A stretch of 64,000 nt of DNA, taken from Escherichia coli (lineage in GTDB: Bacteria; Pseudomonadota; Gammaproteobacteria; Enterobacterales; Enterobacteriaceae). Location: the NCBI RefSeq assembly GCF_044324875.1, contig NZ_CP172185.1. One strand, written 5' to 3'. This document shows positions 23,271 through 51,719 of the stretch, in pieces (the first letter of the stretch is position 1; each line of letters starts with the position of its first letter). Made by a program: the position numbers and the translations under genes. The notes beneath the pieces are model-generated. The model was not told where the DNA came from. It worked only from the letters and a program-made list of their open reading frames with translations, and made no database searches.

Positions 23271-23534
23271 ATGAAACCGAATATCCATCCTGAATACCGT
23301 ACTGTGGTGTTCCACGATACCAGTATCGATGAGTACTATAAAATTGGTTCGACCATCAAGACTGAACGTGTGATTGAGCTTGATGGTGTCACCTATCCGT
23401 ACGTAACTATTGACGTTTCCTCTAAGTCGCATCCTTTCTACACCGGCAAACTGAGAACTGTTGCTTCAGAAGGTAACGTGGCGCGCTTTAACCAGCGTTT
23501 CGGGCGTTTTGTTGACACCAAAAAAGGTGCCTGA
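23271..23534 (+). CDS. rpmE2: 50S ribosomal protein L31 type B (zinc-independent paralog)
   Basis: 87 aa [18 protein letters not shown]... lacking the Cys zinc motif; near-identical to recalled YkgM. Confidence 0.8.
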
Positions 23535-23575
23535 CCAGAAATTGATCACAGGCGCGCTTGATACGCAAAAGTATT
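23468..23575. repeat. direct repeat copy 1 (about 108 bp; 3' end of rpmE2 plus downstream)
   Basis: about 90 percent identical to 26863-26970. Confidence 0.75.
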
Positions 23576-23640
23576 ATTTGTATTATTTCTGATATTTTAT
23601 TTCAAAGGCGGTATTTACCGCCTTAATTAGTTTTATCCGT

Positions 23641-24813
23641 TTATTTATTTCCTTTTGAACGATTATGCGTAACGCAAAGCATTTCGCAATTATCAGGCTT
23701 ACTTTCACCCCCCTTACTCCATGCGGAAACATGGTCGGCTTCCATTTCTTTCAAAGCCCAGATTTTTGTTTTATTGGCATTATCTGAACTGGCGCAAAGG
23801 GGGCAGTTTGAAATACCTTGTTGCTCCGCTTTATCTGTTTGCCTTTTGTAGGCTTGTTTTTTAATTTTTTCATCAAAAAAGCGAATGTTTAATAAACGTT
23901 TATCAGATTGACCACCTAACACATATTCCCAGATGCCTTTAATGTTTTTTACACTATCATCCTGATATAATTTATTGATTTGCGTGGCTAATTCACCTGG
24001 ATTGTATGGTTTGTCTTTATAGGTTTCGTATAAACGCCCCCATTCCAGTCCGCACATTTCTTTTTTTACCTCGGTAAATGTGGTGTTAACCCAGTCAATC
24101 ACGCTATTGAAATAGGTTTTTAATTCCTTGATATTGTCATCATTACGATGGGCATTCATGTATTCGCTGATATTTCCTTTACTGACCCAGTTTAACGCAC
24201 ATTCTAAAATTTCCTGGCGTTTAACATTACCTTTGATGTAAGCACTCCATTTTTGCACATTTGAATTAGCAGAATTACTGAATTCTGCTTTTGCCAGTGT
24301 AACAAATTTGCCCGAATACACCGCATTCAATAATTCTTGTTCATTTAAAGGGACGCCAGTAATATTAATCGTTTTAAACCATTCTTTAATTTCGCTTTCT
24401 GTACCCTTACATTTGTAAATCAGCAAAGTGGTTTGTTTGATTTTCTCTTGTTGGTCTTGCGGTAAACTATGGAAATAGTATGGCGTGCCTTTATCATCTA
24501 TAATGGCGAATTTTCCGGTAACAAACCGCCCAATACTGGTAATGCGCTGCTGACCATCCAGTACTTCAAATGTATCTTCTGTATCTTTGTCAGGTTGATT
24601 AAAATAAATCAAACCGAGCGGATAACCTTTTAATACTGACTGGATAACTGCCACATCTTTCTTACCGTCTGCATAAATATAATTGCGTTGATATTCGGGC
24701 TGAATGGTAAGCTTTCCTGATAAACCAAACAAGCCTTTTCCCTCCAGTTCATTATAAACAAATCCATCGCACAATTGTTCAACGGTGATTGATGTATCTA
24801 ATTGTGTTTTCAT
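23641..24813 (-). CDS. DUF262 (ParB-like, DGQQR) plus C-terminal HNH nuclease
   Basis: motifs QPEYQR and DGQQR near N-terminus; HNH-like HVSAWSKGG...[10 protein letters not shown] at C-terminus; 15 bp after methyltransferase stop. Confidence 0.6.
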
Positions 24814-24828
24814 TTTTCACTTTTCCTT

Positions 24829-25983
24829 TTATTTATTTTGTGGATTGATGTGTTTAATAAGAATGCGTCCATAAGTACGTTTGCCGTTAATAACTGTACA
24901 CCCACCCCTATCTTCAGAATGTTGAGAATAATTTAAAATCTCCAGTATCTCTTCGGGAGTTGATGCTCGTGTATTACCACTTGCTTGCCAAATAATTTCA
25001 AACTGTTCAGGACAATATTTATCCAAAAAGCTAATTGGCACGCCCATAACTCCTGCATAATCGCTAGGAATACCGTTAGTTCTGGGCACTTCAATAGCAT
25101 CATAATTGTCATATGCCTGATAAGCGTTAGGGTCATTGATAATTTGTTTGTTGTATTTTAAATTATCCGCCATAGACATTAGCTGTAAAGATTGATGCCG
25201 TCTGCCGTGTTCAATATTGGTAAACCAACAAGAGTTACCCAAACGAGTATAATCACCTATATATCCTAGACGCTCCGCTTTTTTCTTATCAGCTTCCCTC
25301 ACATCAGCACCTTGTGGTACAGCAAAAACCATATCATTACCATTCCCAGTAGCACCCAACCAAATTTTATTTCCTTTGATAAGTGGAAAAATCTCTTTAT
25401 AAGTAATAGCATTCATATTACCGATAACGGCAAACTGCTTTTTACCTTCCATAATCCATGCCATAAATTCGCGAAACAGCGAAAAAGGCGGATTGGTGAT
25501 AATTATGTCGCTTTCATCGCGTAGAGCTTTGATTTCATCACTACGAAAATCGCCATCACCCTGCAGGTATTGCCATTTAATATCTTTAAAATCAATTACA
25601 CCATCGTGATTACTGTCTTCGGTTAGCGTGTAAATTTTGCCATGTTTCTGGCTTTTATCACTGTCGTATTGTTCACTTTCGCTTTCAAATAATGATGGCT
25701 GATAAGCTGTGTTTAACTGTTTGGATTGATGAGCGTAGCTGGTACTGATGAGCTTCTTTAATCCAAGTCGTTCAAAGTTTTGTGCAAAATAAAGTGTGAA
25801 ATTGCTCCACTCGGGGTCATCACATGGTAAGAGAATGGTTTTGCCACGAAATACGTCTTTATTGAAATCAAGATAGGCATTCATCTCTTTTTCAATATCA
25901 TGGTATTGGGTGTAAAATTCGTCATTTTTGGCTTTTTTTGCAGCAGAAAGATTACTGTTTTTGGCAGAAATATTCTTTGACAT
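24829..25983 (-). CDS. N6-adenine DNA methyltransferase (NPPF motif)
   Basis: catalytic motif IITNPPF; GGAGG RBS 7 nt upstream. Confidence 0.6.
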   Translation of the reverse strand: MSKNISAKNSNLSAAKKAKNDEFYTQYHDIEKEMNAYLDFNKDVFRGKTILLPCDDPEWSNFTLYFAQNFERLGLKKLISTSYAHQSKQLNTAYQPSLFESESEQYDSDKSQKHGKIYTLTEDSNHDGVIDFKDIKWQYLQGDGDFRSDEIKALRDESDIIITNPPFSLFREFMAWIMEGKKQFAVIGNMNAITYKEIFPLIKGNKIWLGATGNGNDMVFAVPQGADVREADKKKAERLGYIGDYTRLGNSCWFTNIEHGRRHQSLQLMSMADNLKYNKQIINDPNAYQAYDNYDAIEVPRTNGIPSDYAGVMGVPISFLDKYCPEQFEIIWQASGNTRASTPEEILEILNYSQHSEDRGGCTVINGKRTYGRILIKHINPQNK

Positions 25984-26033: not shown

Positions 26034-26152
26034 TGCTTGTTGCTTGTTGCTTGTTGCTTGTTGCTTGTTGCTTGTTGCTTGTTGCTTGTTGCTTGTTGCT
26101 TGTTGCTTGTTGCTTGTTGCTTGTTGCTTGTTGCTTGTTGCTTGTTGCTTGT
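26034..26152. repeat. heptanucleotide microsatellite (TGCTTGT)x17
   Basis: 17 perfect tandem units, 119 bp, beginning 50 bp upstream of the methyltransferase ATG. Confidence 0.9.
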
Positions 26153-28944: not shown

Positions 28945-29187
28945 TGTCGCTTCGGCGACCACCAATGTTCCATGAGGCCTGTGAGGAACGCCTTCGGGTG
29001 GCCCACGTCGCTCCGGCGACCACCAATGCTCCATCTGACCTGTGAGGAGCGCCTTCGGGTGGTCAGTTTTACACCTCCGTAGCCTGAAAGGAGCTGTGCG
29101 TGCTGATGGGATATGTTCCCGGAAGTACGGGTAAATCTGCACACCTTTGCGAGCAGATGTCACCACGGTTTACGTGATGATGAAGGC
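28945..29187. repeat. 244-bp direct repeat copy A with internal 48-bp tandem sub-repeat
   Basis: about 95 percent identical to 31740-31983. Confidence 0.8.
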
Positions 29188-29921
29188 ATTCCGGATTTCG
29201 TCCGGTACTTTTACTTTTTCTCAGCAGACTTTCATAAAAATGCTTTATGGATCTGCTTCTTAAGATGTTTTCTGGCTTTCCGCATAAGCTTCTTATGACT
29301 GTGCGCACGGCATAAGGCCATTTGAAATTTGGCCGCTTGCGTGTGTACGTGGATTTTGAAGCCTTGCGGCGTCACTTGAGTGCGACCGTAGGGAACACCA
29401 AGTGACGCCACAACAATCTGCCCTGAAAGCAGCATCACGTAAGGCCAGCCAGAAAATCGTCGCTCGTGACCAGCGTTCTGATGACCGTTTCGTCTGTCTG
29501 ACAGCGTCTTTCAGTAACGTGTCCATGCCTTTCCGGCGCGTCCGTTTTCACGGACGGCCACGCCGGAATGTCTTTTTAAACTTCATAATACATGAGAGGT
29601 AAGTGTATTAACTTGTTGAAAAAAGGAATAAATATGAAAAATCGTTCTGAAGTCGGAAGGCGTCATCGTAAGATGACGGGGAGTAAAAAATCGCCCTGGT
29701 GCACAGGTAGCGAACTCCTGTAAAAACTCAACATGTGCAAGCTCTGCTACATCGACATCAAACGAGCCAGGAAGGCGAGCAACCGCGTTACAGAGCCGTC
29801 CGTGATGACGAAAAACTAACAATATCAACGATCTGGTCTGTTTATCGGAAGGGCATCTCATGCAGTTGAACTTTCAGAACGGATGGTTTTCTGCATCTTT
29901 TTTAACAGGGGGATTGACGTT

Positions 29922-31739: not shown

Positions 31740-31983
31740 TGTCGCTTCGGCGACCACCAATGTTCCATGTGGCCTGTGAGGAACGCCTTCGGGTGGCCCA
31801 CGTCGCTCCGGCGACCACCAATGCTTCATCTGACCTGTGAGGAGCGCCTTCGGGTGGTCAGTTTTACACCTCCTGAGCCTGAAAGGAGCTGTGCGTGCTG
31901 AAGGGATATGTTCCCGGAAGTACGGGCAAATCTGCGCACCTTTGAGAGCAGATGTCACTGCGGTTTTCCGTGATGATGAAGGC
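31740..31983. repeat. 244-bp direct repeat copy B
   Basis: pairs with 28945-29187. Confidence 0.8.
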
Positions 31984-32112
31984 TTTTTTATCACTGTATG
32001 ACCTGAGTTATCTCTGGTCTTTAAGCGCATCGTGTTATCGCGTTGATGTGTTCACCTGACGGATTTTCCAGTCCGTCAGGGCGGAACGTCCGTCTTTTAT
32101 CCGGAGGTTCCG

Positions 32113-32514
32113 ATGTTTATTCCACTTCTGTTTCGCGCAGAGATGCGCCTGACACCTTTCTTTCAGCGACTCAGACAACGTCTGTGTTATCCGGTGAGTC
32201 GTGTTCATACACAACATCCCTGGTCTTCTCCACAGTTGCGGCACCTTTACTGCACGCCGTGGTTTGTTAACGCCACCGGCAATCTGGCAGTCCGTGCCTG
32301 CATTGTTTCCATTGACGGTTCTTTGCGACACTGCTTTGAGTTCCGTGAAGGCTCTCACAGCCGTGAATACCGTTTCTGGTTTGAGGCGCTTCCTTTGTCG
32401 GTACTGCGTTTTAACGCTTTTACCGGTCGAATATCCGATCGCCGTACACTCTCTGCTGCCTCCCGTATGGCCGCGCAGCTTACTTCCTTTCGCTATCGCT
32501 TCGGTTTGCGCTGA
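32113..32514 (+). CDS. hypothetical basic protein
   Basis: GGAGG RBS 7 nt upstream; Arg-rich. Confidence 0.3.
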   Translation: MFIPLLFRAEMRLTPFFQRLRQRLCYPVSRVHTQHPWSSPQLRHLYCTPWFVNATGNLAVRACIVSIDGSLRHCFEFREGSHSREYRFWFEALPLSVLRFNAFTGRISDRRTLSAASRMAAQLTSFRYRFGLR

Positions 32515-32666
32515 AGCTGTTTGAGGTCGTTATGACCGTCATTTTCTCTACGAGCAGCGTTGTCTGATCGCGCCATTCAGAACGCGATGACAAAGCTGAT
32601 TTTTCCTTAACCCGTCCGGGAGCGCTTCCGTTCGGGGAACGGTCTCTCTGTTTCTGGAGATTGTTT

Positions 32667-33053
32667 ATGGGACTCGATATTTTTTTCCTTGGGCGTGATC
32701 GTGTTTGTGTTACCGACGCAGTGGTATCGGTACCGGAAACGCGGGAAGTGGGGTACTTTCGCAAGGTTAACCCACTGATTGCCTGGTTTGAGAAGCATTG
32801 TGGACCGCTTGAAAATGCCGTGGAGCGTCCGGTTTCCAGAACGAAACTGGAGGCACTACTGAGCGATCTTGAATGCCTTACGCCGGAGAACTGCCGGGAA
32901 TTCTTCCCCACAACAGAAGGATTCTTTTTTGGCTCTCAGGAGTATGACCAGTATTACTGGAAGGATGTTGAGGACGTGAAGTCGTGGGTCAGACGCACGC
33001 TTGATTCGTTTGATTTTGAACGAAAAATACTGTTGCTCTGGGCATGGTGGTAA
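32667..33053 (+). CDS. hypothetical protein
   Basis: GGAGA RBS; 128 aa. Confidence 0.35.
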   Translation: MGLDIFFLGRDRVCVTDAVVSVPETREVGYFRKVNPLIAWFEKHCGPLENAVERPVSRTKLEALLSDLECLTPENCREFFPTTEGFFFGSQEYDQYYWKDVEDVKSWVRRTLDSFDFERKILLLWAWW

Positions 33054-33139
33054 CTATTTCTCAGTCCTTATTTTTAACCATGTGATTATTCGCAGAGGCC
33101 CGACAGCTCTGGCCTGCTTTTATTCCGGAGAATGAGATT

Positions 33140-33331
33140 ATGCAAATAAGTGCAGAAACTCGCGCTGTTTTACGTCACTACAGACAGATCATTAACGCCA
33201 GACGGCGTGAAGATGGCATGAAAGCTCTCAGCACGCCGCAAATCGTTGATGAGATCTGTGAGTTTATGCTCAGCCAGCCAGCAGTGTATCTGGGGGGGCA
33301 GTTCATCATGCAGAAGGCCAGAACAAGATAG
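33140..33331 (+). CDS. small hypothetical protein
   Basis: GGAGA RBS; 63 aa. Confidence 0.3.
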   Translation: MQISAETRAVLRHYRQIINARRREDGMKALSTPQIVDEICEFMLSQPAVYLGGQFIMQKARTR

Positions 33332-33884
33332 CTGTCTTTGTTCATGGCTTTTCAACAGACCGTTATGCTTTCGCCACCACATGGTAAGGCGGGTCTGATT
33401 TTACTGTTAACCGTACGGTTCACTCTCATACCGTACGGTGGGAGTGAACCCTTTTCATTAAGGACACTCTCATGAAAACGAAAACTTCTGCACCTGCTGT
33501 ATATGTTGGTACCTGGGCTAAATACAACAATGGCAGCATAGAAGGATGCTGGTTTAATGATTTAACCGTTTTTGAAACTGAAAGCGATTTTTTATCTGCG
33601 GCCCGTAAGTTTCATCAGGATGAAAAAGATCCTGAATTTATGTACCAGGATTATGAAAACTTTCCTTCGGGAATGGCTTCAGTGCAAAATGGCATCTGAA
33701 TCGATCGCAGTTTGGCATTCGAATCGATCATGATTTGGCATCCATCTCCGATCACAGTTTGGCATCACAATCGATCACGATTTGGCATGCTTCCGATCAT
33801 TGATTGGCATCCTGCCAGTCACTCCGGGAATTAACTCTTTTCACCACAGTCTCCATTGCCGTGTTTAAACCAGTGGAGACGTCA

Positions 33885-35450
33885 ATGTCCAGAAAGAGAA
33901 AATCCAGGAGCACTATGGAAACCTGTTTTAAGATCCTTCAGCTCAAGTTCGACAAGAAGCTGACTAACCGTTGTATCGGACTGACGTTACACATCAGCGC
34001 CTCAACCGTTTTTGAGGTTCTTGCCCGCTTCAAAGCCTCTTCTCTGTCATGGCCATTACCTGCTGATATATCCCATGACACGCTGGAGAAACTCATTTTT
34101 CCGCCCAAAGACACCTTTGCATCAGAGCTTGTAATGCCTGACATGTTGTACTTCGATACGGAAATGAGAAAACCAGGTGTGACGCGGCAACTGTTGTGGA
34201 TGGAATACAAGGCACAGGCGGGTAACAAAGCGATGGGATACTCGCACTTCTGCCGTTGCTACCGGGAGTGGAAAAAAACGCGACGTCTCTCCATGCGCCA
34301 GGAGCATCGTGCCGGCGAAAAGCTTTTTATCGACTTCTGTGGTCCTACGGTTCCTGTTATTAATCCGGACACCGGTGAGATACGCCGCGTGGCAATCTTC
34401 GTGGCCGTAATGGGGGCGTCCAACTATACCTACGTTGAAGCGTGCGAAGGTCAGGACATGATGTCATGGTTAAATGCCCACAGCCGTTGCCTGACCTTCC
34501 TGGGCGGCGTACCGAAGCTGCTCATCCCCGATAACCTCAGAAGCGCAGTGAAAAAGGCCGATCGATATGAGCCTGTCATCAACGACAGTTATCAGGCACT
34601 GGCTGAGCACTATGGCACGGTTATCATCCCGGCCCGACCACGCAAACCTAAAGATAAACCAAAAGCAGAAAACGGCGTCCTCATCGTTGAACGATGGCTT
34701 CTTGCCCGCATCCGTAATGAAACCTTCCACACGCTCAGGGCGCTGAATGCGCGCCTTAGGGAGTTACTGACAGACATGAATAACCGGCCAATGAAGGGGT
34801 ACGGCAATCAAACCCGTGCAGAACGCTTCCGCATACTGGATGCGCCAGCACTCTCTCCGCTGCCTCTGGCACCTTATGAATACACGGAATACAAAGCTGT
34901 GAAGGTTGGCCCTGACTACCACGTTGAATATGCCCGTCACTGGTACTCCGTTCCACACGAACTGGTCGGTCAGCGTCTGTCACTGAAGGCGGGGCAGTCG
35001 GTGGTACAGCTCTGGCACAAGGGGCAGTGTGTGGCGCAACATCCGCGCAGCACACATGAATATAAACACACAACCAATCCGCTTCACATGCCAGAGCGCC
35101 ACCGGCAGCACGGGACATGGACACCGGAACGCCTGATCGAGCAGGGAAAACGTACGGGCCCGTCCACAGGCCGGGTGGTTGAATCCATGCTGAAGGCAAA
35201 ACCCCATCCGGAACTGGCTTATCGTGCAGTTCTGGGGCTGCTGGCACTTCAGAAAAAATACGGCCCGGAACGGCTGGAAAAGGCCTGTTACGTTGCCCTG
35301 CACTATAACGCCCCTGACAGACGCTTTATCGACAATCTGCTGCGTCACCATCGGGAGAACCTGGAGCTTCCATTATCCCGCCAGGGCGAACAACATCCGG
35401 CATATGCTTCAGAGCATGAAAACCTGCGTGGTCCGGGCTACTACCACTGA
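33885..35450 (+). CDS. istA: IS21-family transposase IstA
   Basis: 521 aa, N-terminal HTH and DDE-like core; GGAGA RBS. Confidence 0.7.
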   Translation: MSRKRKSRSTMETCFKILQLKFDKKLTNRCIGLTLHISASTVFEVLARFKASSLSWPLPADISHDTLEKLIFPPKDTFASELVMPDMLYFDTEMRKPGVTRQLLWMEYKAQAGNKAMGYSHFCRCYREWKKTRRLSMRQEHRAGEKLFIDFCGPTVPVINPDTGEIRRVAIFVAVMGASNYTYVEACEGQDMMSWLNAHSRCLTFLGGVPKLLIPDNLRSAVKKADRYEPVINDSYQALAEHYGTVIIPARPRKPKDKPKAENGVLIVERWLLARIRNETFHTLRALNARLRELLTDMNNRPMKGYGNQTRAERFRILDAPALSPLPLAPYEYTEYKAVKVGPDYHVEYARHWYSVPHELVGQRLSLKAGQSVVQLWHKGQCVAQHPRSTHEYKHTTNPLHMPERHRQHGTWTPERLIEQGKRTGPSTGRVVESMLKAKPHPELAYRAVLGLLALQKKYGPERLEKACYVALHYNAPDRRFIDNLLRHHRENLELPLSRQGEQHPAYASEHENLRGPGYYH

Positions 35451-35466
35451 CAGAAGGAACAACAGT

Positions 35467-36222
35467 ATGAGTGATAACCTGTTAAACAAACTGACCCAAC
35501 TGAAACTCCCGGCGATGGCCGGGAGCCTGATACGGCAGCGGGAAACGCCTCAGACCTACGACGAACTGTCGTTCGAGGAAAGGCTGACGCTGCTGGTTGA
35601 TGACGAGCTTCTGAGCAGGGAAAACAGCCGTGTGGCACGGTTGAGAAAAAATGCCGGCCTGAAATACCAGGCAACACCGGAAGGGCTGCGCTATCCGGCC
35701 TCAAGAGGTCTGCGGGCTGAACAGATGAGAGAACTGCTGAACGGCCACTACATAACCCACAGGAAAAACCTGCTGATAACCGGTCCGACAGGATGTGGCA
35801 AGAGCTGGATAGCCAATGCGCTGGGCGAACAGGCATGTCGACAGAAACACAGCGTCCGGTACTGTAGAACCGGGCGATTACTGGAACAACTGGCTCAGGG
35901 ACGTGTTGATGGCAGCTGGCTGAAATATCTGAAACAGTTGCAAAAAATACAGGTTCTAATCCTGGACGATCTGGGGCTGGAACAGTTAAGTAACGCCCAG
36001 TGTAATGACCTTCTGGAGCTCATAGAGGATCGTTACGGACAAAGCAGCACGATAGTGGTAAGCCAGTTCCCGGTAGATAAATGGCATGGTCTGATGGAGA
36101 ACCCAACAACAGCAGATGCCATCCTGGACAGACTGGTACATAACTCACACCGAGTGGTCCTTCAGGGAGAGTCACTGAGGAAAAATCCCCCGGTAGTGGA
36201 AAGCAGCGAAAAAACGCGTTAA
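35467..36222 (+). CDS. istB: IS21-family helper ATPase IstB
   Basis: Walker A GPTGCGKS, Walker B ILDDLG. Confidence 0.75.
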   Translation: MSDNLLNKLTQLKLPAMAGSLIRQRETPQTYDELSFEERLTLLVDDELLSRENSRVARLRKNAGLKYQATPEGLRYPASRGLRAEQMRELLNGHYITHRKNLLITGPTGCGKSWIANALGEQACRQKHSVRYCRTGRLLEQLAQGRVDGSWLKYLKQLQKIQVLILDDLGLEQLSNAQCNDLLELIEDRYGQSSTIVVSQFPVDKWHGLMENPTTADAILDRLVHNSHRVVLQGESLRKNPPVVESSEKTR

Positions 36223-36823
36223 AAAGCGGTAGAAAAAGTTAAGTTCCCGGTTGATCGAATGGATGCGAATCGCTGATCGGACTTCGATGCCAATCCGTGA
36301 TCGAATAGAGCGGAATACGCAGCTTCAGAATATGGTTTCAACTGGGCTTATGTTGAAGGTTATCGTCTTGCCCGTGAAGAAGGCTGTGAAGATGCATGGT
36401 ATGCATGGGTTTCTAATACCGGTGATACCTGTTTCGAACAGTTCAGGGAGGCGTGGCTTGGTGGTCCTTATGACAGTGAACTCGAGTTCGCCGCGCAGTA
36501 CGTGGATGAATGCGGTTTTCTGTCAGAGGTACCTGATACTGTTGCACGCTATTTTGATTATGAGGCTTTTGCGCGCGATTTGTTCATGGAACTGGATTTT
36601 GTCGACGGACACGTTTTCCATCGGTAACTCACAGCCATGAGGGCGCATATAAGCCGTGTACTGGCGGATGTGATTTCAGCATACATTCTGCTGGTTTTTT
36701 TACCGTTGTTGACAATTTTAATCATCGCGGATGAACAACCTGAACTCTGTTGTTCACCGCCCGGAGGCATCGTTCCTTCGGACGGTGTGCTCTTTCATCA
36801 GAAAGAATCAGACAGGGGGTTTT

Positions 36824-37183
36824 ATGTATTCGCGTTTTATTACTGGTTACTGGCATCTTCAGACGCAGTCCGCTTTGCTGGCACATCTCTGTCAGCTTGA
36901 AGGTGAACTGACGATACTTCGCGCCTGGCAACGTCTCGGAATTACCCCGGTGCCGGAGGATGAAGATGAGCCTTCACCACTTTACTCAATTTTGTGGGAT
37001 GTTGGTGAGGCTCTGGGCTGGTTGCTGTATGACCTGGAGATGGAAAATGTTCCTGCACCGGGAACGATTTTCCACGAGGTATTCGACAGGGTTATATCTC
37101 TGGGGTATGAGACTGAGCCCGGTATCTGGGCTGAAAGTATCAGTACCGGAAAGCGCTACGCTGCAATGCCTGACGAATTTTAA
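36824..37183 (+). CDS. hypothetical protein (gene 1 of 4-gene cluster)
   Basis: GGGGG RBS; acidic 119 aa. Confidence 0.35.
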   Translation: MYSRFITGYWHLQTQSALLAHLCQLEGELTILRAWQRLGITPVPEDEDEPSPLYSILWDVGEALGWLLYDLEMENVPAPGTIFHEVFDRVISLGYETEPGIWAESISTGKRYAAMPDEF

Positions 37184-37250
37184 TGTTTTCCACATTCCCA
37201 CAGGGACTCATCCCTGTGGGACGGGTCCCGGCTTTTTCAGGAGAAATTTC

Positions 37251-37589
37251 ATGAGACCCGATTTGAATACTTTACCCGGAGATTCCGGCTGCAGCGTCTG
37301 GTTCTATGACGGAATGTCTCAACCGCGTCTGCTGGCGGGCAGTATTGCCGGGTTACTGACGGATGTTACGATCACATCGAATTACCGTGGTGACGTCACA
37401 TCTGAAATTCATGACGTGGTGCAGGAGTGGCTTGCGACCGGCAGGGGTAACCTGGCGGATTTAAAGGAAGAACTCTGGTACTACAACCTCTACATAAATC
37501 CGTCGGCAGACGAACTTATGAATGCCAACAGGCGGTATGGCCTCGGACATACCACCAGGCTGAAAGGCTTTATCAATAACGCGGCGTGA
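37251..37589 (+). CDS. hypothetical protein (gene 2)
   Basis: AGGAG RBS; 112 aa. Confidence 0.35.
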   Translation: MRPDLNTLPGDSGCSVWFYDGMSQPRLLAGSIAGLLTDVTITSNYRGDVTSEIHDVVQEWLATGRGNLADLKEELWYYNLYINPSADELMNANRRYGLGHTTRLKGFINNAA

Positions 37590-37664
37590 CACACCGCCAT
37601 CCCGTGAGGGCTCAGCTCCTCACGGGGCTGTTCCCTCGGTGATTTTCATACAGAGAGGAGCAGA

Positions 37665-38102
37665 ATGATGAACGTTAAGTCTGTGACTGAGGTTGACGAC
37701 GCTGTGGTTGCCCGTGTCAGTGAAGTTCTGGAATTCGCATTTCCGGGGCAGAAATTTGAAGTGCTGAAGGTATGCGATTCCGGCGTTTACAACATGATTA
37801 ATGTGTACTGGCTGGACGGCCCGACACAGGCTGAAGTGCGGTTTATCACCCGTGCGTTTGAAGGCAAAAACGGGCTGAGGTTTGTGCACGAATCCCGCGA
37901 ATTCAGTAATGAATTTGTGCAGGAGTGCATTGACCGGCTTCGCCAGAAGTACGGGCATCGCAACGTTCCGCCAGAGGTGACCGTGGAGCGTTACTGGAAA
38001 AACGATCTGTGGAAGATTAAAACAGATCGTTTCCCGGGCACTATTGAGGTTGCCATCAACGAAATGGGGATGGAAACCAGTAAATACCGGAAGGTTGTAT
38101 AA
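37665..38102 (+). CDS. hypothetical protein (gene 3)
   Basis: GAGAGGAG RBS; 145 aa. Confidence 0.35.
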   Translation: MMNVKSVTEVDDAVVARVSEVLEFAFPGQKFEVLKVCDSGVYNMINVYWLDGPTQAEVRFITRAFEGKNGLRFVHESREFSNEFVQECIDRLRQKYGHRNVPPEVTVERYWKNDLWKIKTDRFPGTIEVAINEMGMETSKYRKVV

Positions 38103-38209
38103 CCGGCTGGACTTTTGACGATGGCGGAATGTGACAATTCCGCTTTTCCCGTGAGGGCATTGTTCCTCACGGGACAATGCCCTCTTCATTTACCAGAGGA
38201 GCATTGATT

Positions 38210-39187
38210 ATGGCTGAATGGTGCAGAAATCGTTTTGAAATCACCGGTAAGTCAGTCTGTCTTGACGTACTGATTCAGTGGATTGAAGGGAATGATGCCC
38301 CCCGGTACCGTCATGCGATCCAGCAGAGCATACTGCTGTTTCTTGCAGGCTGTGCGGGGATACTGAAACCGGTAAGAACGGTGTCATATCCGCCTTATCC
38401 CGGGCTGGTCAGTCACGGTGCCGGCTCAACAACTGTAGCCAGTCAGGCGTTTGAACAATGGCTGGGATTACTGACCAGGGATGCCTTCCTTGATCACGAG
38501 ACGGTGAAGACAATAGATCGTCTTTATCATCAGACAGGGACAGGCGCTATCCGGTGGAGTAATCTGCCTGATACGGCGAAGGAGATAATCGGTGGTGTGC
38601 TTGCACAACAATATGCTGACTGGTTTGGCGTGGCGGATGTGTATGAACGCCCTGATAACGCCTTTCTCTGGGAGTCGTTGTTAACATTTGCGGAGTATTC
38701 GCAACCCTGTGATATGCTGCAGGTGATGCCAACACGACTGGCCACGGAGCTGAACGGAAGTGGTGGTTTGCTGAAAGGCACCGGAACGACCCGCAGTTTT
38801 TACTGCCGCCAGTTTGGTATGGAGTACCCACTGGGGCAGAATGTCCGGTGGAAACGAACCGGGCTGAGTACGTTGATACTGGAGTTTGATACCATCTGGT
38901 GTCCGCCTTCAGGTGTACTGGTGGGGGAGATTTCGGCAGTGTTTGACTGTGAGGTCCGTCACTGGTACAGCGAGCCGAAGAACGGAATCAGAGGCTATGA
39001 CTGTTATGATGGTGGTGAACATACGGACAGCAATATGGAAGCCGAATGGCCACACTCTGACGATGAGGGGGAGGTCGCGGAGCATGAGCAGCCACAACTC
39101 TGTCTGATCAGGGACACGCAGCCAGGTGAACGCGTCATGGCATTAGCATCAGTCGAGTCCCCGGGGCCAGTAGTAAAAATAGTGTAA
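38210..39187 (+). CDS. hypothetical protein (gene 4)
   Basis: AGGAG RBS; 325 aa, acidic C-terminus. Confidence 0.35.
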   Translation: MAEWCRNRFEITGKSVCLDVLIQWIEGNDAPRYRHAIQQSILLFLAGCAGILKPVRTVSYPPYPGLVSHGAGSTTVASQAFEQWLGLLTRDAFLDHETVKTIDRLYHQTGTGAIRWSNLPDTAKEIIGGVLAQQYADWFGVADVYERPDNAFLWESLLTFAEYSQPCDMLQVMPTRLATELNGSGGLLKGTGTTRSFYCRQFGMEYPLGQNVRWKRTGLSTLILEFDTIWCPPSGVLVGEISAVFDCEVRHWYSEPKNGIRGYDCYDGGEHTDSNMEAEWPHSDDEGEVAEHEQPQLCLIRDTQPGERVMALASVESPGPVVKIV

Positions 39188-39221: not shown

Positions 39222-39268
39222 AATAAATCAGTGATGGCAGAGTTGTTATTGTAAATAACTCTCCGTGT

Positions 39269-42184
39269 TTACTGAGTCAGTTTTTTTATCAGGTCGTGAA
39301 TTTTATCACCTGAAAACTGGGTCATGAAAGTTATCTTTATGGATTTACTGATTTGTTCGAAGAGTTTCTGTGCATGTTTTATTTTATCGCGTTCTTCATG
39401 TCTGAGTTCACGTTTGCCATCAACATTTTTGGTTTCAATAATAAGGTTCAGATAATCACCCTTTGACGTGTTTACAACATAAGCGAAGTCAGGGGAGTAA
39501 GTGTATCCTCCCGCTACAGGAATTTTTATTGAATTTTTGGGGATCTTTGTGAAGACAATGACTGACCTGACCTCACCCTCTGTCATATTGAGTTTTTCAA
39601 GTTCTGAATCATAAAATACTTCTTCAAAAAGATAAGAGTCCAGTGGAGGGCTTGTATTATCCTGTAAAACGCCAAGATCACTTGACAATACATCAGCAAG
39701 ATAACCGCCGTCTGCATTGGTGAATTTCGTGGGATGGACAGTTCCTGATATTACATTATACCCAAGGCTGAATTTACTGAACGAGTTATTAAGCAAATAC
39801 TTGCTGAAACCAGATTTAATTTTTCTGATTGTCTGAATGTTAAGGTATTCAGTTATATTTATGATGTCTTTTATATCACAAAAAACCTTATGCATGGTGT
39901 CATGTTTGACAAAAATAGTCTGTGATAATTTATCAAGGAATTCACGATAGCTCATTGTGTTTATTTTGTGAAAATTATCCTCATCAACACTGAGAATGCT
40001 TTTCGACATTGCCGTATCATTATGGATATAAATTCTTTCAATACGAGTATGAGCACCGGATTTGGTAAATCTGTCTGCTTCTTCCAGCATAAACGCTCTG
40101 AAAAGGGATAAAAACTCACGTTCACTTTTTATTTTATACTCAATCACGACCTTTTGATTGATCAAGTCCCATAGTTCTTTCAGCTCACTGAACTTACCAA
40201 CACGCATTTTAGTGCGTCTTTTTCCATCAGAGGCTTTTTTTATTTTGCCTGGTTTCACTCCTGCAGGAAATGCTGCCGGATATCTGGCTTTTAAGCGGCT
40301 ATAGGCATCTGAATCTTTGAAGTTATCATTATCATCAATGATCTCATCATCAAAAATTTCATTCAAGAGTGTTCTGGAGGAAAGCTCCGGATATTGAGAC
40401 AGGATTTTATCCTTAAGTTCCTGAGTAAACTTACCTGGAACAGTCTCTTTGAAAGAACTATCGTTGATCTCTTTGACAAGAGAATCGACAAAATCTTTTT
40501 CTGTAAAATCAACATAATAGTTGAGGGTAAAATTGCGGTCTTTCACACGACACATGTATTCATTCACCGGAAGACGTAAACCACGCCCTACTTCCTGAAG
40601 TTTAGATGTGGTGCTACCGCTCGAACGGAGCTTACAAATCTGAAAGACATTTGGGTTATCCCATCCCTCACGCAACGTCCATTTAGAGAAAATGAAACGG
40701 CGAGGATTTTCTAAAGACAATAGAAGCTCTTTATCATGAAGGATTTCGTTGATTTCCTGCTCAATTTTATCATCTTTATCACTATTATCTTTTGAAAAAT
40801 AACCACCATGAACAGAAGATATATCCTTAACAGTTTTTTCAAGGTAGTTTCTGTAAAACTCATCTTTTTCTGTTTTTAACAGTTCATTTGCTTCTGCCAA
40901 AACGTATTCTTCGAACTTAGTTTTCAGGCTTCCTGCAATATCATTACCATCACGATAGCCTTCAATGTCATCAATGAAGAAAAGAGTAAGAGGTTTTATG
41001 CGTGGCCTTTGTGTCAGATACTCTTTTTCTAACTTAAAGTGTTCTTTGACAGCTTTACGTATCATGTTATCAGCAAGTGTCTGATCGTAAGAATAGGGGT
41101 TTATCGAACTACCAATTTTTAGCTCAATACCATTACTCAACACTGCTGTATTCTTATTTAAAGCATCAAGAGTTAAATCATGGATCGCACTATGCGTCTT
41201 AGATAGTGATTCACCTTTGGCTAACTTAAAAATTTTTTTATTATTATTTTCGTTCAGTTCAAATGTAGCTTCTTTTCCGTCAGATTTGACCAACTTGAGG
41301 TTGGCATTACCATCACCAACTATATCCTCAATGTATGCATCAATACCTTTAACAAGATCTTCATTGAAGGCATCTACGGCTGTAAGACGATAAACTAAGT
41401 TCTTATATCCTTCACTAAAGGTTGCACCATAGCGGATGATATATTGGGCATTAAATTTTTGAATATGTTCCCATGTCTTTTTACCAGTAGGAAATTTATG
41501 AGGCTCATCAATGATAATGAATGGTTTTATCGCACTAAGTGCAGAAAATGGGGTATCAAACTGATTATTAAGCAAGCCAACATCATAAGTGTCAGTTAAA
41601 GACTTAGAGTTAATCATCCCTGAATTGATCACAAGAATGTGTATATATTTCTTATTGAAATTACTTGCTTCAACAAAATCATGGATAGCTTGAGGCATAT
41701 ACGATTTTGTATTTTTACCCGAACGTTTCTGACTTTCAACAACGTAAGTCTTTAGTTCACGCTCGTAATCATCTCGAAAGTGTTCTTTTATAGCATCGCT
41801 TTTTAAAAAGTTAACGGTTCCGGCTTTGATCGATAGGGTAGGAACAATGATGATAAACTTGTTAATACCAAATGATTTGTTCAGGTCAAAAATTGTTTTG
41901 GTGTAAGTATAAGTTTTACCTGTACCTGTCTCCATAGAAACATCAATTACGTTGCTTTTAGCATCGTAATTATCTTTTGAGTGCTCAATACCATTGAACT
42001 CCTGAACATTTTTTATGTTGTTGTAGTATTGTTGTTCAGATAGATTCAGTTCTGGATTAGCTAACAGGCGAATTGCAACATGATCCGTCTGATGAGGTAT
42101 GGCGGATACAAAGACATTCATTACCGAATCAACGCCAGCCTTTTGATGAGGTAAATTTTTTTCGAATGTGAACCCTTTAGACAT
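39269..42184 (-). CDS. res: Type III restriction enzyme, Res subunit
   Basis: 971 aa; Walker A METGTGKT; DEAH-like IIIDEPH; immediately downstream of mod. Confidence 0.8.
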   Translation of the reverse strand: MSKGFTFEKNLPHQKAGVDSVMNVFVSAIPHQTDHVAIRLLANPELNLSEQQYYNNIKNVQEFNGIEHSKDNYDAKSNVIDVSMETGTGKTYTYTKTIFDLNKSFGINKFIIIVPTLSIKAGTVNFLKSDAIKEHFRDDYERELKTYVVESQKRSGKNTKSYMPQAIHDFVEASNFNKKYIHILVINSGMINSKSLTDTYDVGLLNNQFDTPFSALSAIKPFIIIDEPHKFPTGKKTWEHIQKFNAQYIIRYGATFSEGYKNLVYRLTAVDAFNEDLVKGIDAYIEDIVGDGNANLKLVKSDGKEATFELNENNNKKIFKLAKGESLSKTHSAIHDLTLDALNKNTAVLSNGIELKIGSSINPYSYDQTLADNMIRKAVKEHFKLEKEYLTQRPRIKPLTLFFIDDIEGYRDGNDIAGSLKTKFEEYVLAEANELLKTEKDEFYRNYLEKTVKDISSVHGGYFSKDNSDKDDKIEQEINEILHDKELLLSLENPRRFIFSKWTLREGWDNPNVFQICKLRSSGSTTSKLQEVGRGLRLPVNEYMCRVKDRNFTLNYYVDFTEKDFVDSLVKEINDSSFKETVPGKFTQELKDKILSQYPELSSRTLLNEIFDDEIIDDNDNFKDSDAYSRLKARYPAAFPAGVKPGKIKKASDGKRRTKMRVGKFSELKELWDLINQKVVIEYKIKSEREFLSLFRAFMLEEADRFTKSGAHTRIERIYIHNDTAMSKSILSVDEDNFHKINTMSYREFLDKLSQTIFVKHDTMHKVFCDIKDIINITEYLNIQTIRKIKSGFSKYLLNNSFSKFSLGYNVISGTVHPTKFTNADGGYLADVLSSDLGVLQDNTSPPLDSYLFEEVFYDSELEKLNMTEGEVRSVIVFTKIPKNSIKIPVAGGYTYSPDFAYVVNTSKGDYLNLIIETKNVDGKRELRHEERDKIKHAQKLFEQISKSIKITFMTQFSGDKIHDLIKKLTQ

Positions 42185-42186
42185 GA

Positions 42187-44223
42187 TTAGTTTCTTACCA
42201 CCAAATCTAAATCAATAGATTTTTTATTAGCATAACTTTTTAGTGCTTCATTGAGTTCCATCTGTTTCGCACTTTCGAAGTTGCTGCCATAAAATACAAC
42301 TTTGTTAGGGGCAAAGTCTTTGTCTGCATCCAGCTTTTGAAGTAAAGCTTTCAAAGCCTCACTTGTGAAATTAGGCGCAATTAGATATAGCCGACCATCG
42401 CACAAGTGTGCTTTGTAGCCATTAAGGTCAATATCTTCAATTGGTGTTGTTAGCAAGCTGCCATCATACACGCACCATGTCGTCAATAGAGTGTCATACT
42501 GCTCTGGTGTCAATACAGCATCGTCAAAGAAACTAAGATTAGAAAGCGTAAGTTCAGACTCATCTTTCACTCGAAAATTATGAACTGTTTCAAATATTTT
42601 AAATCCCAAATCTCCATTATAATTAGGATTATCTTTTTTCAGCTTTTTTCCTGCCTTAATAATTCTGTCTTTTGTTATATTGAAGATGGATTTATACCCT
42701 TCTTTATAGGCTTGTTTCTTTTTATCTGTTTCTTCATCTAATTGAACACAGATGAAGTTTCTTTTCCTGCCGTCTTCAATATTTAACTCCAGAATACCAT
42801 GAGCTGTAGTTCCAGAGCCAGCAAAAAAGTCAAGATAAATGTCTTTATCTTCGGTTTTTACTGAACCAAATAGTGTTTTTATTAAACTTGTTGGCTTCGG
42901 GTAGGAGAAATATCCTTTCCCACCAAAAAGATTTTCAACCTCAACACCACCATCACTTTTAGTTGAAATAATTGATCTTAGTAAAAACTCTTCAACTTCA
43001 TCTAAAAATTTAACCGAACTGGGTTGGGTGTTTTCTGTACTGGCAAACCAAATTCCACCACAAATAACGCTACCATCATGTAGTTTTTTGATATCTGCAT
43101 ACTTTCCATCTATTCTTTTTGCAATATGATTAAAAGTGCCTTCTTTCCAACGCCAGCCTCTGTCTGGGATTTTGACAGGGTTATTAGTCAAAGGGTGCAA
43201 TACTTCATACGTGGGTCCAAATGAATCTGCATTAGGCCAGCTCATATTAATTTTACCCCATGGCCTATAATCTTCGTTCAAACAGTTGTAAAGAGTAATT
43301 CCACGATCATATCCGTTGGAGCTGTAGAATTTTTTGAGTTGCTGCTCTGCTTTATCTAATGGCACCTTCTCCTTTTTTAACTTTTCAATAAACTGATATA
43401 CATCATCAATACCATCTTTCCGCATTAAAAATTCTTTACTTATTTCGTTATTCTTCGCATAAGCAAGGATGTACTCATGGATATTACCAATACCCTTATC
43501 ATTTTTAGGGATACGTTTATTCCATACAATATTTTCTATGAAATTTGCTTCGCCAAAAATTTCATCACAAATAGTTTTAAGTTGATTTAATTCATTTTCG
43601 TCAATCGAAATAAATATCACACCATCTTCACGTAGAAGCTCACGAGCAATATATAAACGAGGATAAATGAACGTTAACCATGCGCTATGGCTGCTTGAAC
43701 CATTCGTGGTAAATTCAAGTATACGTTTAGCCTCATCAAGATCGATACCTGCCAGATCAGAAAGCTGTTCAGGTGTAAACTTGCGATCATCGTTATAGGC
43801 GAATCCATCCTTACCTGTATTGTATGGTGGATCAATGTAAATCATCTTCACCTTTTCAGAGTAAGCATTAACCATATGCTTCAATACTTCGAGGTTATCC
43901 CCTTTGATTAACAGATTCTGACTGTTTTTGTTCTCTTCACGTTGGTTATGGTCTTTATCTTCGGAGAGTAATGTCTTCGGCGGCAAGTTAGCTAACAGAC
44001 GGGCATAGGATTTACCAAGCCAGTTCAGGCTGTATGATTCTTTGGAGAGTTCAACATCCGATGATTTGACGATTTCAAGCAATTTTTCCTGAATGAACGC
44101 TCCATTTTTATCAAAACACTGTGGAAAGTTAGCCTTTAAAATCGCAAGCTGTTTACTGTTTGTGGTTTCAGTTTCAGAGAAAAGAGTTTCTTTTTTCAGT
44201 TGAAATTGGGGTTGTGTATTCAT
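42187..44223 (-). CDS. mod: Type III restriction-modification methyltransferase, Mod subunit
   Basis: 678 aa; DPPY motif (IYIDPPYNTG); AdoMet motif FFAGSGTT; GGAGG RBS. Confidence 0.8.
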   Translation of the reverse strand: MNTQPQFQLKKETLFSETETTNSKQLAILKANFPQCFDKNGAFIQEKLLEIVKSSDVELSKESYSLNWLGKSYARLLANLPPKTLLSEDKDHNQREENKNSQNLLIKGDNLEVLKHMVNAYSEKVKMIYIDPPYNTGKDGFAYNDDRKFTPEQLSDLAGIDLDEAKRILEFTTNGSSSHSAWLTFIYPRLYIARELLREDGVIFISIDENELNQLKTICDEIFGEANFIENIVWNKRIPKNDKGIGNIHEYILAYAKNNEISKEFLMRKDGIDDVYQFIEKLKKEKVPLDKAEQQLKKFYSSNGYDRGITLYNCLNEDYRPWGKINMSWPNADSFGPTYEVLHPLTNNPVKIPDRGWRWKEGTFNHIAKRIDGKYADIKKLHDGSVICGGIWFASTENTQPSSVKFLDEVEEFLLRSIISTKSDGGVEVENLFGGKGYFSYPKPTSLIKTLFGSVKTEDKDIYLDFFAGSGTTAHGILELNIEDGRKRNFICVQLDEETDKKKQAYKEGYKSIFNITKDRIIKAGKKLKKDNPNYNGDLGFKIFETVHNFRVKDESELTLSNLSFFDDAVLTPEQYDTLLTTWCVYDGSLLTTPIEDIDLNGYKAHLCDGRLYLIAPNFTSEALKALLQKLDADKDFAPNKVVFYGSNFESAKQMELNEALKSYANKKSIDLDLVVRN

Positions 44224-51103: not shown

Positions 51104-51165
51104 ATCGGCCTTCCACGATAAAAACGGGGAAGGTAGGAATAGTGAAACGGAAATGCAATATCGCC

Positions 51166-51184
51166 GTGCCAATCCGGTTTGTGG
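51166..51184 (+). repeat. shufflon crossover repeat R1
   Basis: GTGCCAATCCGGTTTGTGG. Confidence 0.7.
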
Positions 51185-51673
51185 CTTGGAGGCAATAAAG
51201 TGAACTATTCTGCCTGTAAATGGTATGAAGCGACCTCCGCACATTTTATCGGTGGCAGAAGCGGAGGCTCTATTTATTACAAGCCGATTCAGTGCCCTGC
51301 CGGGTACGTCATGACAGGTACAAGAATGTACGGCATCGGAGATGGTGTTGATGAAGAGCACGTCGATGCTTACTGTTGCCCTTTTGGTTAGATTCCGAGG
51401 GCCGGTATTTAATTTTCTCCCGTTGGCTTATTTCTCACAGATTGCTATAGCCTGGAAACAACTCAGGGAGCCAGAGCCAGTAGCAATCCACCGATTGTTT
51501 TTGTAATCAGGGTAACTACCATCTGGTGAGTTGTATCCGTTATGGACCCACTGGGATAACCTGTAGCCGCCGGAGACCAACTTACTCCCCGATGGGCATA
51601 CCGCGTAAGACGATGTCTGAAAGCACCCATTCCCGCCGGATACTGTGAAACGCTCTTTTTTGTCACTGTTTTG

Positions 51674-51692
51674 CCACACACCGGATTGGCAC
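51674..51692 (-). repeat. shufflon crossover repeat R2
   Basis: reverse complement of GTGCCAATCCGGTGTGTGG. Confidence 0.7.
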
Positions 51693-51700
51693 TGGCCTCC

Positions 51701-51719
51701 GTGCCAATCCGGTGTGTGG
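51701..51719 (+). repeat. shufflon crossover repeat R3
   Basis: GTGCCAATCCGGTGTGTGG, 8 bp from R2. Confidence 0.7.

Follow-up and report, generated by a model that had tools for sequence, protein, structure and literature searches.

The 64,000-nucleotide stretch of E. coli DNA analysed here (the window) contains a complete, ISSso4-like insertion sequence (IS) of the IS21 family, lodged within an ardA gene. The element spans positions 33683..36321 (2,639 bp, + strand), runs from 5'-TG to CA-3' and is oriented parallel to ardA; direct reading of both junctions gave its termini as TGCAAAATGG... on the left and ...GGAATACGCA on the right. The left TIR region (33683..33811, + strand) consists of a terminal partial unit and five direct repeats of CGATCNNNGNTTNGCAT spaced at 22-24 bp, and the right TIR region (36252..36321, - strand) of two full units (36263-36279 and 36287-36303) and the terminal sequence ...ACGCA. 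All seven matches to CGATCNNNGNTTNGCAT in the 64-kb window lie at the ends of the element (five on the + strand at the left, two on the - strand at the right); the chance expectation was 0.45, and none of 100 shuffled sequences reached seven. A repeat spacing of about 23 bp is the TIR architecture of the IS21 family (PMC10122671). The element is bordered by a perfect 7-bp target duplication, GCTTCAG, with its left copy at 33676..33682 and its right copy at 36322..36328, where intact loci have a single heptamer. Between the ends lie istA (33915..35450, + strand), encoding a DDE transposase of 511 aa from the PGAP start (an alternative ATG is at 33885), and istB (35467..36222, + strand), which begins 16 nt past the istA stop codon and encodes an AAA+ helper ATPase of 251 aa. 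IstA matched the NCBIfam equivalog model NF033546 (transpos_IS21) with 284.6 bits (cutoff 160) and IstB matched NF038214 (IS21_help_AAA) with 257.8 bits (cutoff 200); the IstB translation shows Walker A (GPTGCGKS) and Walker B (LILDD) motifs. Identical copies carry the PGAP annotations WP_045147483.1 (IstA) and WP_001282653.1, 'IS21-like element ISSso4 family helper ATPase IstB'.

The 5' fragment of ardA (33472..33682, + strand) comprises native codons 1-70, corresponding to the N-terminal domain 1 of ArdA. In the alignment to 2w82, native residue 70 falls at approximately residue 61 of the Tn916 protein, which is the end of domain 1 in the published domain map (3-61, 62-103 and 104-165), and residues essential at the dimer interface and in the VF motif belong to domain 3 (PMC2731889). 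The reading frame continues across the junction as an ORF of 75 codons (33472-33699), 70 of them native and five contributed by the IS (VQNGI), with the stop codon at 33697-33699 inside the left end of the element. The predicted product is still acidic (11 D/E versus 6 K/R, pI 4.5), and exactly this 75-aa product was found on two Logan SRA contigs. The 3' fragment (36329..36627, + strand) carries codons 71-169 and the stop codon; these codons span domains 2 and 3 and include both the antirestriction and the VF motif. A TGA at 36298-36300 precedes the open frame, which begins at 36301 and closes with the stop codon at 36625-36627; native ardA sequence resumes within it at 36322, or at 36329 when one copy of the target duplication is dropped. 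This fragment has no start codon of its own; translation could first begin in frame at the GTG of 36502, which has no obvious Shine-Dalgarno sequence and opens a 41-aa ORF (36502-36627). A scan for sigma-70 consensus sites revealed no + strand promoter upstream of ardA, promoter-like sites being no commoner than in shuffled sequences, so that expression of the 75-aa stub is only assumed. The same scan detected no outward-facing promoter at the right end of the IS, and there is therefore no evidence for re-expression of the 3' fragment. Past the end of ardA, a hairpin resembling a terminator lies at 36676-36694; given this hairpin, the insertion would be expected to exert little polarity on 36824-39187. 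The first-pass annotation of this DNA had described an intact istA-istB element with multiple terminal repeats lying between a 75-codon N-terminal piece that ends at an intrusive stop and a C-terminal frame (36301-36627) that lacks a start codon. Each element of that description is borne out: the IS is complete with its five plus two repeats, the stop is IS-derived, and the first in-frame start in the distal piece is the GTG at 36502.

Joined in silico, the two fragments form one contiguous protein of 169 aa, encoded by an uninterrupted ardA of 169 codons. Pfam model PF07275 (ArdA) matched this restored protein with E=2.7e-26, its residues 10-162 aligning with positions 1-147 of the 155-position model, and a phmmer comparison with Tn916 Orf18 ArdA (2w82_A) gave E=1.8e-8, with query residues 9-163 aligned to chain residues 5-155. 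None of the NCBIfam models matched, and membership in the ArdA family therefore rests on Pfam and PDB. At the level of sequence comparison, the restored protein aligned end to end with the protein of the Tn916 ArdA crystal structure, 2w82. Two motifs defined for ArdA (PMC2731889) are present: the antirestriction motif, located at the dimer interface, appears as EVPDTVARYFDYEAFARDL opposite Tn916 EVPASLQNYIDYQAYGRDL in the phmmer alignment to 2w82, and the C-terminal VF motif appears as 'HVF', 3-5 residues before the C-terminus. The restored protein is strongly acidic (33 D/E versus 12 K/R, pI 4.21), shares 61-63% identity, across 96% of its length, with ArdA proteins of E. coli conjugative plasmids (PLSDB), and is identical to an intact protein labelled 'antirestriction protein ArdA' in RefSeq (WP_000853152.1). 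By family membership it would be an inhibitor of type I R-M enzymes.

To restore the locus in silico, the IS and one copy of the duplication were deleted, and 1,710 bp were compared with other genomes. The restored DNA was 100.0% identical over the 1,710 bp to two E. coli chromosomes, NZ_CP158308.1 and NZ_CP182371.1; in 33 further genomes the identity was 99.4-99.9%, and all of these loci are annotated as ArdA. The empty site, with a single copy of GCTTCAG, is present in 35 genomes, and ardA is intact in 35 of the 36 complete genomes that carry this allele (identity at least 99.2%). Comparison with intact ArdA, which the first-pass annotation had suggested along with a search for isolates with the uninterrupted gene, places the insertion between codons 70 and 71 with GCTTCAG as the duplicated target. 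The possibility raised there, that the fragments might not align to one ArdA homologue, did not materialize, as the contiguous 169-aa protein, PF07275, 2w82 and the intact loci all attest. The interrupted allele itself is rare. When 5,426 complete RefSeq E. coli genomes were searched with the left junction, none had a match that covered 80% or more of the query, so the interrupted allele is absent from these genomes, and an exact 40-nt junction scan of 100,044 GTDB species-representative genomes gave 0 matches. Two SRA assemblies carry the left junction; one unitig from this source agrees letter for letter with window positions 31960-33710, reaching 28 nt past the junction.

Copies of the same IS are widespread. 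Places matching it with at least 80% coverage occur in 225 genomes, on chromosomes and plasmids and in up to 23 places per genome, and full-length copies at many unrelated E. coli sites are 100% identical among the matches listed. Because of this identity, the insertion in ardA is taken to be recent. Five copies that we inspected have the same ends, differing flanks and target duplications of their own of 4-7 bp; this variability in duplication length is harmless to the conclusion, since the empty site is known. Strain 3R was considered as a carrier of the ardA insertion and set aside, its copy of the IS lying in a dynamin-family gene on a different island.

The window is colinear, at 99.7-99.95% identity, with an element adjoining tRNA-Phe in E. 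coli CM2, except for the 2,639-bp block of the IS; the alignments flanking that block overlap by exactly 7 bp in CM2. By PGAP names, the CM2 element encodes TIGR03745-03759 ICE conjugation proteins, SPI-7-type DnaB, ParA and ParB, STY4528/STY4534 proteins, TraI, an integrase, topoisomerase III and Ssb; it also has a type IVb pilus locus whose pilV gene forms a shufflon. Judged by these names in the CM2 relative, the host element is an ICE of the SPI-7/pKLC102/PAGI-2 type, its ends lying outside the window. Carriers of the ICE are mostly from poultry, and BEN374, the host of ICEEc2, is likewise given as poultry-derived where it is cited in PMC11537424.

Two R-M loci are located on the same ICE, and both are intact, in agreement with the first-pass annotation. 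The type II pair (23641..25983, - strand) consists of an EcoRI-family adenine MTase (24829-25983, - strand; PADLOC MTase_II, 7.2e-96) and an HNH-type REase (23641-24813, - strand; PADLOC REase_II, 3.1e-86), both also supported by the CM2 annotation. The type III locus (39269..44223, - strand) consists of mod (42187-44223, - strand; PADLOC MTase_III, 771 bits) and res (39269-42184, - strand; PADLOC REase_III, 1600 bits), with a match to NCBIfam NF012027 at 1073.8 bits (cutoff 564). The annotation had also regarded the loss of ArdA as a notable functional shift in an element with its own R-M loci. That idea does not hold. The type III system EcoPI was shown to be resistant to ArdA proteins, and type II systems are not a target of antirestriction proteins (PMC10149784); because ArdA proteins inhibit neither type, there is no link between loss of ArdA and this type II and type III cargo. 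ArdA is directed at the type I enzymes that a recipient cell possesses. When nine ORFs near ardA were compared with PHROGs, only families of unknown function and an integrase were returned, and an 'anti-defence island' around ardA, also considered, was not substantiated by this comparison.

The arrangement is very probably the result of a single recent cut-and-paste transposition, in which a complete and apparently active ISSso4-like IS entered ardA of the ICE between codons 70 and 71. Direct support comes from the 2,639-bp element with exact TG...CA ends, the 7-bp duplication, the restoration of a known allele on excision, and the identity of the IS to copies elsewhere. In the proposed sequence of events, IstA would bind the multiple terminal repeats spaced at about 23 bp and cleave at the terminal CA, the IstB AAA+ ATPase would capture the target DNA, and staggered strand transfer would generate the target duplication. 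Insertion at the boundary between domains 1 and 2 would leave the native promoter and ribosome-binding site with only the 75-aa domain-1 stub as product. Domains 2 and 3, to which the dimer interface belongs together with the antirestriction motif and the essential VF motif, would be stranded without a start codon. The type II and type III R-M cargo of the ICE would be unaffected and functionally unconnected with ArdA. This is an ordinary knockout by a known IS in a known type of ICE, and no new biological system is involved. Loss of domains 2 and 3, and with them the dimer interface and both motifs, argues that ardA has been inactivated.

Inactivation need not be complete, however. Natural small ArdA proteins that consist of the N-terminal or the C-terminal part alone protected lambda DNA from EcoKI and EcoR124II in E. 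coli (PMC12548430), and because such natural partial proteins are active, the domain-1 stub is not necessarily inert. The allele might accordingly be a hypomorph or neomorph rather than a null, its 75-aa product behaving like sArdN and retaining a low level of antirestriction and/or antimethylation activity towards certain type I systems; we regard this as unlikely. Both sArdN, which is of the N-terminal type, and sArdC are active in vivo against EcoKI and EcoR124II, and small ArdA proteins are proposed to have had several origins, each through the loss of part of an ardA gene (PMC12548430). The break at the boundary between domains 1 and 2 keeps a whole domain, and the stub retains its acidity. 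On the other hand, domain 1 packs on domain 2 and buries about 1700 A2 there (PMC2731889), so that the isolated domain may be unstable, and the sArdN that was assayed is a diverged, maintained stand-alone gene of Corynebacterium, not a fresh truncation. By the published definition, sArdN is a stand-alone, conserved short form (PMC12548430); here, the 3' remainder of ardA lies just past the IS, 35 of 36 carriers keep a full-length gene, and nothing points to selection for a short form. The more specific idea, that the insertion converted ardA into an sArdN-like gene whose acidic peptide partly blocks or demethylates some type I R-M systems, or in a weaker variant that insertions or selection favour disruption of ardA at codon ~70, is quite improbable.

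It is also conceivable, at long odds, that the loss was adaptive, with ardA a recurrent IS target and ArdA costly to the resident host, antimodification of that host's type I system being one conceivable cost. An independent truncation of this ardA allele, by the IS66-family element ISCro1, occurs in strain AR_0085; there, one end of ISCro1 directly adjoins ardA nucleotide 210/211, a point within the 7 bp that the insertion in the window has duplicated. For random breakpoints in a 510-bp gene, the chance of falling within 7 bp is roughly 3%. There are, however, just two such disruption events, and the one in AR_0085 belongs to a larger rearrangement that deleted the whole left side of the ICE. 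The high proportion of carriers with intact ardA also argues against recurrent loss, and no sequence feature that would explain a hotspot was identified at the site. Since this IS strikes many unrelated genes, in up to 23 matching places per genome as noted above, a neutral hit is the simpler reading. An assembly artefact or chimeric join, in which an assembler misplaced the IS in ardA, has a negligible probability and is largely refuted already: IS copies are repeats and a common cause of broken or mis-joined assemblies, and the SRA contigs bearing the junction end 28 nt inside the IS, but the element is full-length with canonical ends and a perfect 7-bp duplication, its flanks rejoin at 100% identity into a known intact ardA allele, and contigs of two SRA samples independently contain the left junction.

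With a single recent transposition as the preferred reading, this copy of the ICE is predicted to become established less efficiently wherever the recipient has active type I restriction. As a clonal marker the insertion junction is handy, since two SRA assemblies have it but none of the 5,426 complete RefSeq E. coli genomes does. Beyond strain-level annotation the importance of the insertion is slight; the sole wider point, a speculative one, is sArdN-like activity in an ArdA domain-1 stub, and such a conversion, if true, would be a snapshot of the proposed origin step of small ArdA families.

By profile and by full-length pairwise alignment, the interrupted gene belongs to the same family as ArdA of ColIb-P9/R64 (IncI1), pKM101 (IncN) and Tn916 Orf18. 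It shares with known ArdA proteins the 169-aa size class, acidity, the antirestriction and VF motifs and location on a conjugative element, whereas its nearest plasmid relatives in PLSDB are merely 61-63% identical. It lies on a chromosomal ICE, not in the leading region of a plasmid, and in the window it is interrupted. The 75-aa stub, like sArdN (Utkina et al. 2025, PMC12548430), is the N-terminal third of ArdA, and the 41-aa GTG ORF (36502-36627) covers the region that sArdC mimics (PMC12548430); sArdN and sArdC, however, are maintained stand-alone genes without flanking ardA fragments, whereas the pieces in the window are fresh debris of one split gene. The IS shares with the IS21 and IS5376 prototypes the istA-istB pair, TG...CA termini, TIR repeats spaced at about 23 bp and a short target duplication. 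It has five left and two right full repeat units, where the prototypes are drawn with L1/L2 and R1/R2, and its duplication is 7 bp (4-7 bp in sister copies), compared with a uniform 5 bp for IS5376 in vitro (PMC10122671). PGAP assigns elements of the very same sequence (100% identity) to the 'ISSso4 family', and the name used here is that PGAP label. The host element, in turn, resembles ICEEc2 and the pKLC102/PAGI-2/SPI-7/PAPI-1 ICEs at tRNA-Phe, a likeness drawn from the gene set and insertion site of its CM2 relative.

The ardA gene is present in the window as two pieces, a 75-codon ORF carrying its 5' part (33472-33699, +) and a 3' open frame (+) extending from 36301 to a stop codon at 36625-36627, as seen in the ORF listing and the raw sequence. 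The 3' frame codes for ...EYGFNWAYVEGYRLAREEG...VPDTVARYFDYEAFARDLFMELDFVDGHVFHR, and its earliest start is a GTG at 36502; two long tandem ORFs lie between the fragments. Reading of the junctions delimited an inserted block of 2,639 bp (33683-36321, first bases TGCAAAATGG, last bases GGAATACGCA), flanked by GCTTCAG as a perfect 7-bp direct repeat (33676-33682 and 36322-36328). When the block and one copy of GCTTCAG were deleted in silico, a clean 169-codon ardA resulted. Two E. coli chromosomes, CM2 and Br_112_kylling, match this restored locus (a 1,710-bp query of ardA with 600-bp flanks) at 100.0% identity and 33 further genomes at 99.4-99.9%, and all of them carry an unbroken gene annotated 'antirestriction protein ArdA'. 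The empty site observed in them fixes the insertion point and the target duplication.

The protein encoded by the restored gene matched Pfam ArdA PF07275 (E=2.7e-26, model positions 1-147 of 155) and the crystal-structure sequence of Tn916 Orf18 ArdA, 2w82 (E=1.8e-8, residues 9-163), a match that takes in the antirestriction-motif region. It is strongly acidic (33 D/E versus 12 K/R, pI 4.2). Searches of PLSDB with tblastn found genes annotated ArdA on ~80-120-kb E. coli and Salmonella plasmids at 61-63% identity, contiguous over 96% of the length, and matches of 45-49% on Klebsiella and Enterobacter plasmids. Together with the 100.0% identical intact loci, the Pfam, 2w82 and plasmid matches identify the two pieces as one contiguous ArdA gene, the opposite of what the first-pass annotation had set as its refutation, and they support the core interpretation of the first-pass annotation, that an ArdA gene is split by an IS21-family element.

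An IstA (NCBIfam equivalog transpos_IS21, 284.6 bits, cutoff 160) and an IstB (NCBIfam IS21_help_AAA, 257.8 bits, cutoff 200) are encoded by the inserted element, and the IstB translation shows both Walker motifs, A (GPTGCGKS) and B (LILDD). Of 5,426 complete E. coli genomes, 1,778 contain sequence related to the IS by megablast; in 225 of the 1,778 the match is close to full length, and a single genome, chromosome and plasmids included, has as many as 23 matching places. The matches listed first were 100% identical across all 2,639 bp and are labelled by PGAP 'IS21 family transposase' and 'IS21-like element ISSso4 family helper ATPase IstB'. At the left end the unit CGATCNNNGNTTNGCAT is present in five direct copies and at the right end in two inverted ones, at a spacing of 22-24 bp; these seven matches, all at IS ends, are the only ones in the 64-kb window, against 0.45 expected. 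Such ends agree with the published IS21-family architecture, in which the TIRs consist of multiple direct repeats 23 bp apart with a reactive terminal CA, and IstA needs two complete repeats (PMC10122671). Five other copies (L001 and L006-L009), identical in IS sequence, have the same termini and each its own target duplication, of 5 (CCCGG), 6 (GTCAAT), 7 (CGCAGAC), 4 (AGGA) and 7 (TTACCTG) bp. Seven base pairs is the commonest duplication length among these insertions, yet the length is variable, in contrast to the uniform 5-bp duplication reported for IS5376 in vitro (PMC10122671).

These data confirm a split ardA with an intact IS between its parts: the insertion, its exact position, its duplication and the integrity of the IS are all shown. 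By analogy with the family (PMC10122671), IstA tetramers would have synapsed the repeat-bearing ends, IstB would have delivered the target DNA, and staggered strand transfer would have generated the duplication.

The left junction was found in no complete RefSeq E. coli genome and in no GTDB species representative. The exact 75-amino-acid chimeric product was present in two Logan SRA assemblies, and a contig from one of them (SRR31072984) matches 31960-33710 of the window exactly along its whole length, reaching 28 nt past the junction. A perfect target duplication, an IS that does not differ from other copies and flanks that match intact alleles exactly show the insertion to be real, recent and rare. 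This ardA allele is intact in 35 of the 36 complete genomes carrying it; the remaining carrier, AR_0085 (NZ_CP029741.1), lacks the 5' part of the gene. At that locus (L011, 5948-6010), an end of the IS66-family element ISCro1 abuts ardA nucleotide 210/211 (window 33682/36328), within the heptamer that the IS21-family element duplicated on insertion, and everything to the left is replaced by unrelated island genes. Under random breakpoints such an agreement has a probability of ~3%; with two events only, it may be coincidence or a local hotspot.

The gene is broken at residue 70, which aligns with Tn916 residue ~61. Tn916 ArdA comprises domain 1 (3-61), domain 2 (62-103) and domain 3 (104-165); the dimer interface belongs to domain 3, as do the antirestriction motif at 126-140 and the VF motif, which is essential (PMC2731889). 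The native expression signals would therefore yield domain 1 only, leaving domains 2-3 without a start codon. The dimeric, 42-bp-like DNA mimic would be unable to form, and this ICE, on entering new hosts, would be expected to meet more type I restriction. In E. coli, small natural ArdA proteins that correspond to its N-terminal (sArdN) or C-terminal (sArdC) part counteract type I systems, and their proposed origin is deletion of parts of ardA (PMC12548430). The stub consists of the whole of domain 1 behind unaltered upstream signals and might keep partial activity. We consider this improbable: domain 1 normally buries ~1700 A2 against domain 2 (PMC2731889), the short form is not conserved, 35 of 36 carriers having the full-length gene, and sArdA genes by definition lack flanking ardA fragments (PMC12548430).

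Hairpin and T-run structures lie upstream (33417-33450) and downstream (36676-36694) of ardA. These flanking hairpins point to ardA as a possible separate transcription unit, which makes any polarity on the genes of unknown function at 36824-39187 uncertain. Two copies of the 10-bp palindrome ACCGTACGGT (33410-33419 and 33430-33439) lie in and beside the upstream hairpin, which has a 13-bp stem, is followed by CTTTTC and ends ~20 nt 5' of the ardA start codon; the structure at 33410-33450 could serve as the upstream gene's terminator or as an operator for ardA.

The first-pass annotation had further called the loss of ArdA a notable functional shift because the element carries two R-M loci. 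Both loci are real and intact by PADLOC and NCBIfam: a type II MTase/REase pair (23641-25983, -; PADLOC 7.2e-96 and 3.1e-86) and a type III Mod/Res pair (39269-44223, -; PADLOC 771 and 1600 bits; NCBIfam 1073.8 bits, cutoff 564). That significance does not hold, however, for loci of types II and III. ArdA of pKM101 and ColIb-P9 gave no relief of EcoPI (type III) or BREX defence, and antirestriction proteins are ineffective against type II systems; neither type II nor type III systems have an S subunit (PMC10149784). ArdA therefore does not target the R-M loci of the ICE itself, which, as methylating, addictive cargo, act on other incoming DNA.

The window is colinear with a CM2 chromosomal element over essentially its whole length (99.7-99.95% identity). 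The CM2 element adjoins tRNA-Phe on the yqgA side and is annotated with TIGR037xx integrating-conjugative-element genes, TraD, TraG, a conjugative ATPase, a type IVb pilus with pilV shufflon, SPI-7-type DnaB, ParA and ParB, topoisomerase III, Ssb, TraI and an integrase; gene set and site therefore indicate an SPI-7/pKLC102/PAGI-2-type ICE. Four differences separate the copies: the IS in ardA, the absence of IS1414, an inverted shufflon segment and a small indel. In CM2 the IS256-family IS1414 separates the DUF1281 gene from the type III res gene; it is missing from the window at ~39246-39253, where the flanking alignments overlap by 8 bp; with the IS in ardA, two independent IS events therefore separate the ICE copies. 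A 1,284-bp segment (51165-52448) is inverted relative to CM2, with ~21-bp overlaps at each end, and its position, with an Rci-like integrase gene on one side and pilV on the other, makes it a shufflon inversion; the pilV ORF is 429 aa in the window (52096-53385) and 387 aa in CM2. At ~26076-26110 the alignment blocks overlap by 35 bp in the window and 77 bp in CM2, which indicates that a short repeat separating the type II MTase gene from ccdAB-like toxin-antitoxin genes differs in copy number by ~42 bp. By CM2 colinearity, a 'type B 50S ribosomal protein L31' paralogue lies next to the type II pair (~23313-23576, +) and the siderophore receptor/adhesin gene iha at 14620-16707; both are cargo, without relation to the ardA insertion.

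Rfam detected two full-length STAXI motifs, at 28945-29117 (+) and 31740-31911 (+) (85.3 and 83.3 bits; gathering score 40.5), and one EFASI motif at 29642-29764 (+; 71.7 bits). The second STAXI heads the + strand gene run containing ardA, and a third copy in the CM2 ICE (L003, 18396-18650) lies between an STY4534-family gene and topoisomerase III. The name STAXI (Ssbp, Topoisomerase, Antirestriction, XerDC Integrase) agrees with this placement; the authors who described the motif did not decide whether it works as RNA or as single-stranded DNA (PMC2864571). The insertion is of an established kind throughout, the IS, the gene and the type of ICE all being known already, and so ordinary biology; ICEEc2 of avian E. 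coli, as cited in PMC11537424, is the obvious named relative, as a candidate only.
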